In this document: one piece after another, positions 1,995 to 19,977 of the stretch
How the letters are laid out: each line of letters begins with the position of its first letter
Position numbering within the stretch: position 1 is the stretch's first letter
Origin: Acidimicrobiales bacterium
GTDB lineage: Bacteria; Actinomycetota; Acidimicrobiia; Acidimicrobiales; AC-9
NCBI GenBank assembly: GCA_036270875.1
Contig: DATBBR010000070.1
Location: 5,002 to 69,001 of the forward strand
Direction: 5' to 3'
DNA: 64,000 nt
Made by a program: the position numbers and the translations under genes
Notes under the pieces: generated by a model
The model's database searches: none
The model's input: only the letters and a program-made list of their open reading frames with translations
Told to the model about the DNA's origin: nothing

Positions 1995-3113
1995 TCAGCC
2001 CGATGAGAAAGGTACGAGCGGATCGGAGCCATCACGCTGCAACGGCATCCGCACGGTGAAGGCGCACCCGGCTCCCTCGTTGTGGACCACGATCTCACCG
2101 CGCTGCGCCTCGACGAGGCCTCGAGCGATGGCAAGACCGAGGCCCGCTCCCCCACCGCCGTCGCGGCCGCGGGCGGCGTCGCCCCTGTAGGCCACCTCGA
2201 AGACCCGCTCGAGGTCCTGGGCCGGGATCCCCCCACAGGAGTCGAGCACCGTCACCGTGGCCGAGCCGTCCTCGTAGCCGGCGGCGATCGTCACTTGCCC
2301 TCCGGCCGGCGTGTGTCGGATGGCGTTGTCGAGCAGGTTGCGGAGGGCCCGGCCGAACTCCGGGGTCGAGAGCTCGACGCTGGGGCCCGAACCGACGGCC
2401 CGGCCGCTCAGGCGTATCGCCTTGGCCTCGGCGGCGGGCCTGGCCCCGGCGAGCGCGTCGGAGACGAGGTCGGTGAGGGAGGCGGGCGCGGGCGACAGCC
2501 GCAGGGTGTGGGCCCCGATCCGGCTGAGCTCGAACAGCTCGTCGACCAGCTTGGCCAGGCGCTCGGTCTCGAGCCGCATGGTCCGGTGGTAGCGGGCGAC
2601 CGTCTCGGCGTCGTCGACCACACCGTCCTCGAGGGCCTCGACCATGGCCCGGATGCCGGACAGCGGCGTGCGAAGGTCGTGGGAGACCCACGCCACGAGC
2701 TCGCGGCGAGAGGCCTCGACGGCCTGGGCCCGGGCCCTGGCCTCGGCCAGGCGAGCCTGGTCATGGCCGAGGATGAGCGCGGCAAGGATGCCGACCGTGC
2801 CGGCCGGCGGCAGGACCACCAGGAGCACGGCGAGGTCGTGGTCGTTGATGAACATCTGCGACGCAGCGACGAGGACGCCGGCTCCCACCGCGGCCACCAC
2901 GCCCAACGCGACCACCGCGGCCTGGAACCCGACAGACCGCGGGGGCGCGCCGCGAAGGGCGCCCCACCCGATGACGCCGACCGCACCGGCCGCACCGATG
3001 CTGATGCCCGACAGCGTCATCGCATCGCCCCAGGGCATCCCGGTGGCCAGCGCGGCCAGCGTGGTGACGAGGGCGCCGGCAGCGACGACCAGCCATACCC
3101 GCCGTGCGGTCAC
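1995..3113 (-). CDS. sensor histidine kinase, intramembrane-sensing type (4 predicted TM helices, no obvious extracytoplasmic or HAMP domain)
   Basis: H-box ELVAWVSHDLRTPLSGI, N-box LRNLLDNAIRHTP and G-box GGGAGLGLAIARGLVEA are present. Start placed at GTG 3113, which forms a GTGA overlap with the response-regulator stop. The 491-aa track ORF extends upstream only as Arg/Pro-rich read-through. Confidence 0.9.
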   Translation of the reverse strand: MTARRVWLVVAAGALVTTLAALATGMPWGDAMTLSGISIGAAGAVGVIGWGALRGAPPRSVGFQAAVVALGVVAAVGAGVLVAASQMFINDHDLAVLLVVLPPAGTVGILAALILGHDQARLAEARARAQAVEASRRELVAWVSHDLRTPLSGIRAMVEALEDGVVDDAETVARYHRTMRLETERLAKLVDELFELSRIGAHTLRLSPAPASLTDLVSDALAGARPAAEAKAIRLSGRAVGSGPSVELSTPEFGRALRNLLDNAIRHTPAGGQVTIAAGYEDGSATVTVLDSCGGIPAQDLERVFEVAYRGDAARGRDGGGGAGLGLAIARGLVEAQRGEIVVHNEGAGCAFTVRMPLQRDGSDPLVPFSSG

Positions 3114-3952
3114 GGCTCGAACCGGTAGCCGACGCTCCACACGGTGACGACGTGACGAGGATCGGCCGGGTCGGCCTCGACCTTCTCGCGCAGTCGCCGG
3201 ATGTGGACCGTGACCGTCGACGTGTCGCCGTAGGTGTAGCCCCAGACATGCTCGAGCAGCTCCTCCCGGCTGAACGCCCGCCGCGGGTGGCGCATCAGGA
3301 AGACGAGGAGGTCGAACTCCTTGGAGGTGAGGGCGACGAGCGTCCCGCCGAGCCGGGTCTCGCGGGCCGCGGTGTTCACGCTGAGCCGGCCTGCCGTCAG
3401 GACGGCGCCGGACGGCGTCGAGCCGGCGGACGCCCCCCCTGCGGCCGGCCCGGCATCGGGCTGCGGCCACGGCCCACCTCGAGCCCGGCGCAGCACCGAC
3501 CGGATCCTGGCCATGAGCTCCCTGGGCGAGAACGGCTTCGACACATAGTCGTCGGCACCGAGCTCGAGGCCGGCGATGCGATCGGCCTCGTCGCTCTTGG
3601 CGGTCAGCATGATGACCGGGATTGGGGCCGCCAGCCGCAGGCGCCGGCAGACCTCGAGCCCGTCCAGGCCCGGAATCATGAGGTCGATCACGACCAGGTC
3701 CGGCAACGAGCGAAGGGCTCGCTCGACGGCGTGCGTGCCGTCCGCCACCTCTTCGACGGCGTAGCCCTCACGGGTCAGGTAGCGGGCGACCACCTCCGAG
3801 ACGGTGCGATCGTCCTCGACCACCAGCACCCGGGTGGTGGCGCCGTCGGGCGCGGGCGCAGCGAGGCCCTCCACTCCCGTGATGCTAGGCCCCGGGTCCC
3901 CGGGGCGTGGCGCGCGGCCCGCCGGGCCGCGCCATCCGTGAGGCCTCCTCAT
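3110..3952 (-). CDS. OmpR/PhoB-family response regulator
   Basis: Receiver domain (RVLVVEDD ... DLVVIDLMIPGLDG ... PVIMLTAK ... GADDYVSKPF) plus winged-helix domain (LTSKEFDLLVFLMRHPRRAFSREELLEHVWG ... VHIRRLREKVE ... VTVWSVGYRFEP). An unusually long Gly/Pro/Ala linker joins them. This is only the last 280 aa of the 787-aa track ORF. The ATG at 3952 overlaps the epimerase stop (ATGA). Confidence 0.9.
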   Translation of the reverse strand: MRRPHGWRGPAGRAPRPGDPGPSITGVEGLAAPAPDGATTRVLVVEDDRTVSEVVARYLTREGYAVEEVADGTHAVERALRSLPDLVVIDLMIPGLDGLEVCRRLRLAAPIPVIMLTAKSDEADRIAGLELGADDYVSKPFSPRELMARIRSVLRRARGGPWPQPDAGPAAGGASAGSTPSGAVLTAGRLSVNTAARETRLGGTLVALTSKEFDLLVFLMRHPRRAFSREELLEHVWGYTYGDTSTVTVHIRRLREKVEADPADPRHVVTVWSVGYRFEP

Positions 3953-16301: not shown

Positions 16302-18151
<1,850 letters not shown>

Positions 18152-18278
18152 CTCCTAGGGCTGTCGTTCCGAACGCTTGCTCAGGACGATCGCCCGAGCA
18201 CCGATTGCCCGCCGGCCGCGCCGGCGTCTCGAATTACGTGAAGTTCCAGTCCAGGTCGTGACAGTGCGCCAGAGCTCC

Positions 18279-18824
18279 TCACCTCCTCCGGCGCTGCGGC
18301 GCCGTATAGCGCGCCGAGCTCGCCGGTCGTGGGCGCGCCGCCTCAGCTGCCGGGGCGGGTGAAGGAGCGAACCTGAGCCGCAGCCCCGACAACAACGAGG
18401 AGATGCGGCTGTCTGCCGCGGTGGTGGCCCGTGTCTGACGGGCGACCATCACCATGAGGAAGACGGCATAGAAGAAGAACAGGATCTGGATGTAGAACTC
18501 GGGGCCCCACGGCCCGACGGCCACCAGCAACGCCCCTCCCGCCATGAGCACGCCACGGCGAGTGATCGTCGCGGCGGCGAGGAGCCCCGAGAGCACCAGC
18601 CCGATGAGCAGATAGCTGGTCCCTGTGGCGCCGGTCGCGACCCGGCTGCCGAGGTTGGGCACCCAGAGAGCGGCGAACCCTCCAGCCGCGGTCACCGCCG
18701 CAAAGAGGCCGACCCAGCGGTGCCGGTCGGCCAGGCGGATCGTCAGGGGCCCAGGGCGTTCGCTGCCTTTGCTTCCCCCGGACCGAGGTCGGTCGAGAAC
18801 TGCGCGCGATGAGTTCGTTGCCAC
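18279..18824 (-). CDS. hypothetical 4-TM membrane protein
   Basis: Hydrophobic ORF directly upstream of amt on the same strand. The GTG at 18824 lies 9 nt behind GGAAGG. The track start (TTG 18833) is less likely. Confidence 0.55.
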   Translation of the reverse strand: MATNSSRAVLDRPRSGGSKGSERPGPLTIRLADRHRWVGLFAAVTAAGGFAALWVPNLGSRVATGATGTSYLLIGLVLSGLLAAATITRRGVLMAGGALLVAVGPWGPEFYIQILFFFYAVFLMVMVARQTRATTAADSRISSLLSGLRLRFAPSPAPAAEAARPRPASSARYTAPQRRRR

Positions 18825-18890
18825 GTCAGCCAACCCTTCCGTTAGGCATGGCGGAGAAGGTAAGGCTCGTACGTCACAGGCGTTCGACAG

Positions 18891-18989
18891 GCTGATTAAC
18901 AGCGCGTTAACAGCCTGACGCTCGGAACTGAAACAGAAGCGCTCGCTGATTAACGCGCCGTTTACATGCCCTGAAGCGACACGAAACAG
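18891..18989. promoter_or_regulatory. tandem ~54-bp operator-like units: GCTGATTAAC-n6-TTWAC-n17/18-GAAACAG, twice
   Basis: Unit 1 spans 18891-18936 and unit 2 spans 18945-18989. In unit 2 the pentamers TTAAC/TTTAC/TGAAG/GAAAC fall exactly every 11 nt (18950, 18961, 18972, 18983). The segment is AT-rich, sits in a GC-rich divergent intergenic region, and ends 41 nt before the wHTH regulator start. Confidence 0.5.
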
Positions 18990-19029
18990 CCGAGACGTAC
19001 GATCCGCTCACGACGGAGGAGGTGTCCAC

Positions 19030-19644
19030 GTGCGGGAACCGGATCGAGCCATGCCTTCGTACGGGCCCTCGCAGGGGCTCGCGTACGAGGTCCCGATGGC
19101 CCACGCCGACTCTGAGCCGGTGATCGTGGCTGTGGTGCACTGGCCGGAGGACGAGGAGCTTCTCCGCTGGTTCGCAGAGTCGGGGACGGCGCGGCTCGTG
19201 CTCGCCAGCGGCGACGAGCCCGTACCGTGGGTCGACGACCCGCTGCAGGACTGGGTGCGGATGCCCGTCCACCTCGGTGAGGCCCAGGCCCGCCTCGAGG
19301 CCCTGGCCCGGAAGGTGGCGGATCGTCGCCGGGTTGCGACCGTCCCCGTGCTCGACGAGAACGGCCGGTTGTTCCAGGGCGGACGCTGGGTCCCGTTGTC
19401 GGGCGTGACGGCGCGACTGGCGGCGGCACTCGTGGAGGCGTTCGGACAGGTGGTCGAGGACGCCGAGCTGCTGTCCCGCGGCTGGCCCGACGGCGGTGGG
19501 CAGCGGGACACCCTGCGGGTCCAGCTGACCCGGTTGCGGCGCCGCATCAAGCCCCTCGGGTTGGGGATCCTGTACGTGAACGGCGGCCACGTGCTCAGCG
19601 ACCTGCGGCAGATGCCGCCGAGCCGCCGACCGGACGGCACGTGA
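19030..19644 (+). CDS. atypical OmpR/PhoB-type winged-helix regulator with a short, degenerate receiver-like N-terminus
   Basis: The C-terminus fits the Trans_reg_C pattern (VPLSGVTARLAAALVEAFGQVVEDAELLSRGWP ... LRVQLTRLRRRIKPLGLGILYVNGGHVL). The N-terminal ~90 aa has no recognisable phospho-acceptor pocket. GGAGGAGG lies 7 nt upstream of the GTG at 19030. Confidence 0.7.
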   Translation: MREPDRAMPSYGPSQGLAYEVPMAHADSEPVIVAVVHWPEDEELLRWFAESGTARLVLASGDEPVPWVDDPLQDWVRMPVHLGEAQARLEALARKVADRRRVATVPVLDENGRLFQGGRWVPLSGVTARLAAALVEAFGQVVEDAELLSRGWPDGGGQRDTLRVQLTRLRRRIKPLGLGILYVNGGHVLSDLRQMPPSRRPDGT

Positions 19645-19671: not shown

Positions 19672-19977
19672 CTAGGCCGCTCCGGCGCGGGGAACCTCCC
19701 GGCGCCGTCGATCGGCCCGTAGCTCGTGGGCCGAGAACGTGATCGGAAGGACCTGGCCGTCCGAGAGCCGTCTCAAGTGGTAGGCATGGTGCTCGACGCC
19801 GGCGACCACGAAGCCGCGGCTCCAGCTCCCGGTGAAGCGGGTCGCCACCTCGACCAGCTCCCCGACCTCAGGTCCCTGGGGCAGGGATCCGCTTGCCTCC
19901 GACGCCAGCTGCTCCATCACACCTCGCCTTCTCACCGTCGCGAGCACCTCGCCGTCATTGAACTCCTCGCCGGTCAC
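19672..19977 (-). CDS. hypothetical protein
   Basis: Third-position GC is high. A possible internal start MEQLASE sits behind GAAGGCGAGG. No family recognised. Confidence 0.45.
   Translation of the reverse strand: MTGEEFNDGEVLATVRRRGVMEQLASEASGSLPQGPEVGELVEVATRFTGSWSRGFVVAGVEHHAYHLRRLSDGQVLPITFSAHELRADRRRREVPRAGAA

Follow-up and report, generated by a model that had tools for sequence, protein, structure and literature searches.

A GlnR-like, probably bidirectional control region between amt-glnK and a gene of an undescribed OmpR-type regulator family with a receiver remnant in Acidimicrobiales

The divergent intergenic region between the gene of a 204-amino-acid (aa) OmpR-type regulator and a leftward unit of a four-transmembrane (4-TM) protein gene, amt and glnK was analysed in a 64,000-nucleotide (nt) stretch of DNA from an Acidimicrobiales bacterium (contig DATBBR010000070.1, positions 5,002 to 69,001; hereafter the window). 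The best explanation of its sequence is a bidirectional, activator-dependent control region with the promoter geometry of GlnR. The GlnR-like operator and promoter system appears to be run by, or at least to be tightly coupled to, an undescribed OmpR-type family with a receiver remnant. Within that family, a single diverged cluster is made up of the window protein and its close relatives, which lack the family-typical helix and wing; it is called the window branch here and is set apart from the main family. For the adjacent 204-aa protein as the binder of the boxes, and thus as a phosphorylation-independent, autoregulated activator of amt-glnK, the probability is put at roughly one half.

The intergenic region contains two repeat units (Table 1), which a repeat search returned as a 22-nt direct repeat with 54-nt spacing. 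The re-read sequence agreed with the unit coordinates, the sequences and the exact 11-nt phase given by a first-pass annotation made from the letters alone; in unit 2 the pentamers start at 18950, 18961, 18972 and 18983. The units are therefore real, and their GATTAAC heptamers are identical. Two details of the earlier description had to be changed. The conserved core is GATTAAC, whereas the GCT of the second GCTGATTAAC varies among orthologues, and the array reaches further left, with GTCAC at 18873-18877 and TCGAC at 18884-18888. In the 64 kilobases (kb), on both strands, GCTGATTAAC, GATTAAC and TTAAC-n6-TTWAC are restricted to the intergenic region, and no other copies of the motif were found near other genes of the window. 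Six plus-strand pentamers within the 196 nt are followed by ACAG, where the count over the whole window predicts about 0.5. Orthologous loci were taken from four species-representative genomes and several soil metagenome contigs, with 77-93% protein identity. Across them the pentamers and both putative -10 boxes are invariant or keep their letter-defining positions, and the spacers vary. Protein-binding sites and core promoter elements would be expected to show such conservation in the alignments, and a neutral repeat would not.

The four pentamers of the right array are followed by a putative -10 element, TACGAT, which is kept as TAnnnT (TACGAT or TACCAT) in the diverged orthologues. The right promoter would thus read TTTAC-n6-TGAAG-n6-GAAAC-n10-TACGAT, with an extra TTAAC upstream and a leader that carries a Shine-Dalgarno sequence. 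With TACGAT as -10, the four sites of the right array lie at about -60, -49, -38 and -27, the third being degenerate. Unit 2 and TACGAT share the geometry of the promoter found throughout the family (described below) and are homologous to it, and unit 2 is therefore read as the regulator gene's own promoter, directed away from amt.

The same architecture was found in front of the homologues. TTCAY-n6-GWAAC-n6-GWAAC-n10-TAnnnT stands directly upstream, on the gene's own strand, in 69 of the 80 main-family loci examined (search form for own promoters, TTYAN-n6-SNAAC-n6-SNAAY-n9-11-TAnnnT). The start codon follows 6-8 nt after the -10 element in 57 of 63 non-redundant cases, which implies a leaderless mRNA and independently supports the -10 assignment. 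Most family genes are thus predicted to be leaderless. In the fetched DNA, about 490 kb, the generic promoter pattern matched 73 times; each of 20 shuffles gave 0-1 matches. Sixty-seven of these matches are own promoters and one is a variant of an own promoter; the other five all precede an amt gene adjoining a family member (L011, L026, L039, L058 and L093), as in L093, where amt is preceded by GTAAC-n6-CACAC-n6-GAAAC-n10-TACCGT. The generic pattern was used because a strict position weight matrix built from the own promoters was too specific for the amt promoters. Of the 82 main-family loci, whose median length is 3.9 kb, 8 contain an amt or glnK gene, as do all window-branch loci that reach far enough. 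Since the same promoter type stands before family genes and before amt, the factor reading the boxes is predicted to control at least the regulator genes and amt(-glnK). In the window branch, TTTAC/TGAAG/GAAAC replace the family's TTCAC/GAAAC/GAAAC, and a fourth site, TTAAC, is added upstream. A different arrangement was seen in L012 (864-935), where the gene of the distant member P0014 lies downstream of amt; a terminator-like GC hairpin and a Shine-Dalgarno sequence stand before it in place of the boxed leaderless promoter.

On the minus strand, the left block too has its pentamers in exact 11-nt phase (Table 1). Its putative -10 element is TACCTT in the window, L001 and L016 and TACCGT in L003 and L095; TAnnnT is kept and the flanks vary. 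The pattern xxAAC-n6-xxxA[CT]-n17-xxxAC-n10-TAnnnT has exactly two matches in the 64 kb, at plus 18950 and minus 18910, with a shuffle mean of 0.01. This pattern was written after both halves had been seen, so the count is supportive and is no clean test. An inverted repeat, AACAGCGCGTTAA / TTAACGCGCCGTT, is complementary at 12 of 13 positions and accounts for the two units no less well than the direct repeat; it can be read as a trace of the mirror symmetry of the two arrays, whose innermost sites are 44 base pairs (bp), or 4 x 11, apart. The first-pass annotation had described a tandem array upstream of amt-glnK. Because unit 2 points away from amt, and because the left block, on the minus strand, mirrors the right array with four sites and a conserved TACCKT ten bases away, two divergent promoters are favoured instead. 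A lone CTGAAAC between the arrays shares the phase of neither, and every orthologue has its core TGxAAC unchanged.

The 204-aa protein has Trans_reg_C (PF00486) as its sole Pfam match, at 25.5 bits against a cutoff of 26.2. No NCBIfam model came near its cutoff, and neither database has a model for the whole protein or its N-domain. In a PDB sequence search, residues of about 60-178 aligned with the alpha4-beta5-alpha5 receiver end and the DNA-binding domain of VanR, NsrR and KdpE; of the receiver part only residues of about 60-100 aligned, to that end. An AlphaFold2 model built from a 70-sequence alignment (predicted local distance difference test, pLDDT, 85) predicted a disordered N-terminus of about 32 aa, a receiver remnant at residues 33-101 and a complete OmpR/PhoB-type winged helix at 113-191 with an intact wing hairpin. 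The modelled N-domain consists of strand 33-38, helix 42-51, strand 54-59, strand 73-77 and helix 82-101. Foldseek matched the model to OmpR/PhoB regulators in general, with PhoP, PrrA, VanR and KdpE at the top and GlnR at rank 44; isolated OmpR-type DNA-binding domains matched by fold at a TM score of about 0.7 and a root-mean-square deviation of 2-3 Å. An invariant W38-P39 stands after beta1 in place of the acidic pair, the beta2-alpha2-beta3-alpha3 section of the receiver is missing, and the position of the receiver Lys is hydrophobic, DW(V/I)R(M/V)P. The family alignment has no conserved acidic residue at a beta3 end. By alignment and model, the N-domain is a three-strand receiver remnant that is predicted not to be phosphorylated at the canonical site, in line with the short, acceptor-less receiver-like domain that the first-pass annotation had recognised.

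The window protein is assigned to a large, undescribed and uncharacterised Acidimicrobiales family of small regulators with this receiver remnant. A profile of the window protein and its first relatives retrieved a family of ~170-aa proteins, from Acidimicrobiales wherever labelled. An exhaustive HMMER search gave 436 clusters (50% identity) at E<=1e-30, and P0003, the cluster representative of the window protein at 50% identity, was found at E 2e-56. Members have about 160-210 aa, with the N-domain motifs V..V.WP, R.L.L and DW.R.P followed by Trans_reg_C. The window protein is 35-45% identical to family members and has all 26 family-invariant columns, by definition, as the alignment includes it. 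A metagenome scan returned 80 loci, namely 77 of distant members (35-45% identity) and 3 of the window branch. Precomputed PF00486 matches exist for all distant family members and for 2 of 9 full-length window-branch relatives. The recognition helix of the window branch reads QRDTLRVQLTRLRRRI, against RNALDVHMLRLRRRI in the main family (RNALDVH.LRLRRRI), and its wing reads ILYVNGGHVL, against RTVRSRGYLL (RTVR[SA]RGYL). Within the alignment of L011-L093, the wing motif TVR[S/A]RGY has Ser where GAAAC boxes, and Ala where GTAAC boxes, stand upstream of the same gene. Two metagenomic proteins, P0015 (351 aa) and P0125 (392 aa), carry two complete modules in tandem in one polypeptide; as natural fused dimers, they would fit a function as dimers on direct repeats.

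In a large subgroup of the family, only about 50 nt separate the boxed regulator promoter from the start of the divergent leuC (MSQTLSEKVWERHVV...), a gene identified by eye. This subgroup comprises L018, L021, L024, L034, L041, L043, L044, L046, L050, L053, L054, L056, L059-L062, L064, L070, L073, L074, L080 and L092; in L054, leuA also lies near the regulator locus. The family regulator may thus act on leucine biosynthesis genes as well. Automatic clustering of neighbouring open reading frames (ORFs) was abandoned, as it was swamped by wrong-frame ORFs in the high-GC DNA.

The cis-element of GlnR consists of a and b pentamers (gTnAc and GaAAc) with 6-nt separation, normally four in a row (PMC5826061, PMC10235972). 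The transcription complex of M. tuberculosis GlnR has an amtB scaffold that begins at -64 and carries b2 downstream of the -35 element (PMC10235972). Streptomyces amtB has an atypical a2 site that can be dispensed with, as well as an additional a3-b3 box upstream (PMC5826061). As a DNA pattern and in geometry, the window sites follow this grammar of a and b pentamers, with the 11-nt phase and the array around -35. The first-pass annotation had held that the half-sites resemble the GlnR grammar but do not match it. That view was not upheld, as four pentamers with 6-nt spacers, a degenerate third site and a last site between -35 and -10 amount to a match. The likeness to GlnR (PDB 8HIH, 8HIG) further extends to the OmpR-type winged helix, the lack of a partner kinase gene nearby, the linkage to amt-glnK and the independence from canonical phosphorylation. 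In contrast, GlnR has a complete five-strand receiver whose conserved Asp serves dimer stabilisation, against the three-strand remnant of the window protein. The system also differs in that the window gene carries its own boxes and most family genes are leaderless.

Orthology with GlnR was rejected. BLASTP, hhalign and PDB sequence and fold searches gave no two-domain alignment, in agreement with the earlier impression that the protein is unlike canonical GlnR. The comparison with M. tuberculosis GlnR, whose sequence was checked at every residue against PDB 8HIH (8HIH_O), aligned no more than 85 aa of the DNA-binding domain, at 28% identity and a BLASTP E value of 3.9. The family profile aligned with GlnR in the DNA-binding domain alone, at an hhalign probability of 75%, with 35% identity for the main family. 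GlnR chains were absent among the PDB sequence matches of the window protein.

Several other systems share parts of this arrangement. GlnRII of Streptomyces coelicolor, encoded next to glnII, is likewise the product of an OmpR-type gene adjoining a nitrogen assimilation gene; the window protein would be a locus-attached second paralogue of that kind if a main-family member is also present in the genome. PRK07239 proteins, which we take to be of the NnaR type, combine a HemD-like N-domain with an OmpR-type DNA-binding domain and are likewise actinobacterial, nitrogen-related and devoid of a functional receiver. The C-terminus of PRK07239 is the best or second-best NCBIfam match of the main-family proteins P0013, P0064 and P0076, at E values of about 1e-9. 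However, with 37 bits the match falls far short of the required 273, the two kinds of N-domain are unrelated, and the window protein itself does not match the model. This hints that the nearest relatives of the main-family DNA-binding domain may be nitrogen co-regulators rather than GlnR. The pho boxes of PhoB and PhoP resemble the window sites as 11-bp direct repeats bound head-to-tail by OmpR-family proteins and overlapping the -35 element, but these regulators have a complete receiver phosphorylated by a partner kinase. AmtR of Corynebacterium is a lineage-specific replacement of GlnR that controls amt-glnK, and a precedent for signal input via GlnK; unlike the proposed activator, it has a TetR-type fold, binds a palindromic operator and acts as a repressor released by GlnK. 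A literature search found no paper linking GlnR or a nitrogen regulator to Acidimicrobiia, and none describing a truncated receiver of this kind.

In the favoured model, the 204-aa protein would bind the 11-bp-phased xxxAC pentamers head-to-tail as an oligomer. Such oligomers would occupy about -60 to -23, substitute for a poor -35 element and recruit RNA polymerase as GlnR does. From the right array the regulator would activate its own gene by positive autoregulation, and from the left block it would activate the 4TM-amt-glnK operon under nitrogen limitation. As the receiver remnant has no phospho-acceptor, the signal must enter by a route other than phosphorylation. GlnK, the P-II protein encoded alongside, is one speculative input; a metabolite and the abundance of the regulator are others. 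The adjacent protein is the most economical binder because the boxes travel with family genes across contexts (leuC, a MarR-like gene, a cyclic-nucleotide (cNMP)-binding gene and amt), because a family member is the only regulator in view at the loci with a boxed amt, and because operator and DNA-binding domain have both diverged in the window branch. The tracking of GAAAC and GTAAC by the wing Ser/Ala of the main family likewise argues for a family protein as the binder. The earlier proposal of a nitrogen regulator and operator pair is thus retained, with the architecture now found before 69 of 80 homologues and before neighbouring amt genes, except that the pair is not private to a narrow lineage. 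A wider reading is entertained only tentatively. In that reading the mini-receiver family would be the class-wide master nitrogen regulator of Acidimicrobiales that replaces GlnR, its receiver a dimerisation stump and the window branch a locus-attached variant co-evolved with its operator. The GlnR-like grammar would have been kept, and nitrogen status would be read without phosphorylation, via contact with GlnK, a metabolite or an autoregulatory loop on a leaderless mRNA.

Several points weigh against the favoured model. Binding, transcription starts and expression are all predicted from sequence comparison. The wing and the recognition helix of the window protein are unusually diverged and its Trans_reg_C match is just under the cutoff, so altered or weak DNA binding is possible and binding is less certain than for the main family. 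The correlation of Ser/Ala with the boxes reflects about two independent switches, one in L011 and one in the large GTAAC clade, and has three exceptions (L020, L052 and L072). Most main-family members lie away from nitrogen genes, with leuC, the MarR-like gene and the cNMP-binding gene among their neighbours. The left promoter fits the family pattern less well, with GTGAC instead of GAAAY as its proximal site, and the pattern that retrieves it was drawn up only once it had been seen. The left block is also quasi-palindromic; read on the plus strand, GTCAC, TCGAC, TTAAC and TTAAC are four xxxACAG sites in an 11-12-11 phase, and the ACAG extension occurs six times on the plus strand and never on the minus strand, which favours the plus-strand reading.

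The strongest competing explanation is that a canonical GlnR, or a main-family paralogue of the TTCAC/GAAAC type, is encoded elsewhere in the genome and may bind the boxes, the adjacent gene being its target or a GlnRII-like modulator. This is a serious contender, although it is not the expected outcome. The sites fit the published GlnR consensus and geometry, the proximal GAAAC is a family-consensus site, the window protein has a degenerate wing and a sub-threshold Trans_reg_C match, and a branch as rare as 3 in 80 metagenome loci would suit an extra paralogue. On the other hand, no canonical GlnR and no second mini-receiver family member is encoded in the 64-kb window or the fetched flanks, and the literature search found no GlnR linked to Acidimicrobiia. 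The operator also departs together with the protein, at positions that are invariant in the main family (TTCAC to TTTAC and GAAAC to TGAAG), and a family member is the sole regulator adjoining the boxed amt promoters of main-family loci.

It is unlikely that a single plus-strand array serves only the regulator promoter, leaving 4TM-amt-glnK uncontrolled from here or repressed by occlusion. The sites can be read on the plus strand as GTCAC, TCGAC, TTAAC, TTAAC, GAAAC, TTAAC, TTTAC and GAAAC, six of them with the AG extension, the heptamers of both units are the same, and the extra upstream box of Streptomyces amtB (PMC5826061) would be a parallel. However, the phase of this reading slips (11, 12, 11, 23, 20). 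On the minus strand the left block keeps exact phase and lies 10 nt from a conserved TAnnnT. In distant loci amt has its own promoter of this type, and the gap between the 4-TM gene and amt shows no other promoter.

Less probable still, and indeed improbable, is an MtrA-like or PhoP-like phosphorylated response regulator as the main binder. The sequence GTCACAGGCG (18873-82) resembles GTCACAgcg, which we take to be an MtrA site. An OmpR-type two-component system is encoded at 1995-3830 on the minus strand of the window, as a full-receiver regulator with a histidine kinase gene directly downstream, and the best NCBIfam model of the regulator is MtrA. Competition of PhoP and MtrA at GlnR boxes is documented in Streptomyces (PMC3561978, PMC9151340). 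Against this, the window regulator scores below the MtrA cutoff (241 against 300 bits) and is encoded 15 kb away, and the family-wide coupling of the boxes to mini-receiver genes would be left unaccounted for. A non-regulatory intergenic repeat, a mobile-element remnant or chance is effectively refuted, since the repeat has two copies in one intergenic region and is unique in the 64 kb, contrary to the widespread repeat family considered in the first-pass annotation, recurs in fetched loci only at the fixed orthologous position with footprint-like conservation, shares its architecture with 69 of 80 distant loci against 0-1 shuffle matches, and has no Rfam match.

Table 1. Features of the control region and its flanking genes (positions in the window).
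Feature	Position	Strand	Sequence or remark
Divergent intergenic region	18834-19029		196 bp between 4-TM gene and regulator gene
Left block, nearly invariant	18873-18911	minus reading	TTAAC 18910-06, TTAAT 18899-95, GTCGA 18888-84 (degenerate), GTGAC 18877-73
Putative -10 of leftward promoter	18857-18862	minus	TACCTT; 10 nt after GTGAC
Unit 1	18891-18936	plus	GCTGATTAAC 18891-18900, TTAAC 18907-18911, GAAACAG 18930-18936
Lone CTGAAAC	18928-18934	plus	between the arrays
Unit 2	18945-18989	plus	GCTGATTAAC 18945-18954, TTTAC 18961-18965, TGAAG 18972-18976, GAAACAG 18983-18989
Right array, four 11-nt-phased pentamers	18950-18987	plus	TTAAC 18950-54, TTTAC 18961-65, TGAAG 18972-76 (degenerate), GAAAC 18983-87
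Putative -10 of right promoter	18998-19003	plus	TACGAT; 10 nt after last pentamer; predicted start near 19010
Shine-Dalgarno sequence	19015-19022	plus	GGAGGAGG; 7 nt 5' of regulator GTG; invariant in orthologues
Regulator gene, 204 aa	19030-19644	plus	OmpR-type; GTG start
4-TM membrane protein gene	18279-18833	minus	first gene of leftward unit; alternative GTG start 18824 possible
amt (ammonium transporter)	16637-18151	minus	Pfam PF00909, 260 bits; NCBIfam TIGR00836, 322 bits, under 343.3 cutoff
glnK (P-II signal protein)	16302-16640	minus	Pfam PF00543, NCBIfam P-II models; overlaps amt stop codon

The window has a G+C content of 70%, and its nearest relatives are contigs of Acidimicrobiales metagenome-assembled genomes. 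The gene calls of the first-pass annotation, namely amt, the P-II gene glnK and a Trans_reg_C C-terminus, were confirmed with Pfam, the last as a match just below the cutoff. The 4-TM ORF itself had no family match in the Pfam scan. The order glnK-amt-4TM / regulator is kept in the orthologous loci, and synteny with the 4-TM gene is maintained in L001-L010, L015 and L016. The gap of 127 bp between the 4-TM gene and amt was examined and no boxed promoter was found in it; amt-glnK is therefore probably transcribed together with the 4-TM gene. A conserved GC palindrome, GCCGGC-GCG-GCCGGC, lies in this gap at 18211-18225, with no T-run after it and no boxed promoter nearby; it could form an RNA hairpin affecting amt expression or transcript processing. 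At 18142-18160, an AGGAGG before amt abuts the first possible start, GTG 18151. TTG 18142 is better spaced and may be the real amt start.

The neighbours of the regulator gene are the 4-TM gene and a 101-aa ORF (19672-19977, minus strand), which runs towards the regulator gene and matches nothing in Pfam or NCBIfam; an 82-aa counterpart is kept in orthologous loci. No histidine kinase gene was found near the regulator gene, either in the window neighbourhood or in orthologous loci. An RNA element, a terminator and a sigma-70 promoter were considered for the intergenic region and rejected. Rfam gave no match there and two chance-level matches elsewhere in the scanned stretch (E 0.25-0.29, far below the gathering scores), the consensus promoter scan was empty, and the lone terminator-like match was below the shuffle expectation.

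Acidimicrobiia are abundant in soil and water and mostly uncultured. The locus, together with about 80 related loci, provides a candidate regulator family whose operator is defined, whose promoter geometry is predicted and whose first regulon would consist of its own gene and amt-glnK. It appears that an OmpR/PhoB-type activator without the phospho-acceptor half of its receiver keeps the four-protomer promoter architecture of GlnR. The finding is relevant to nitrogen regulation in actinobacteria and to the evolution of response regulators.

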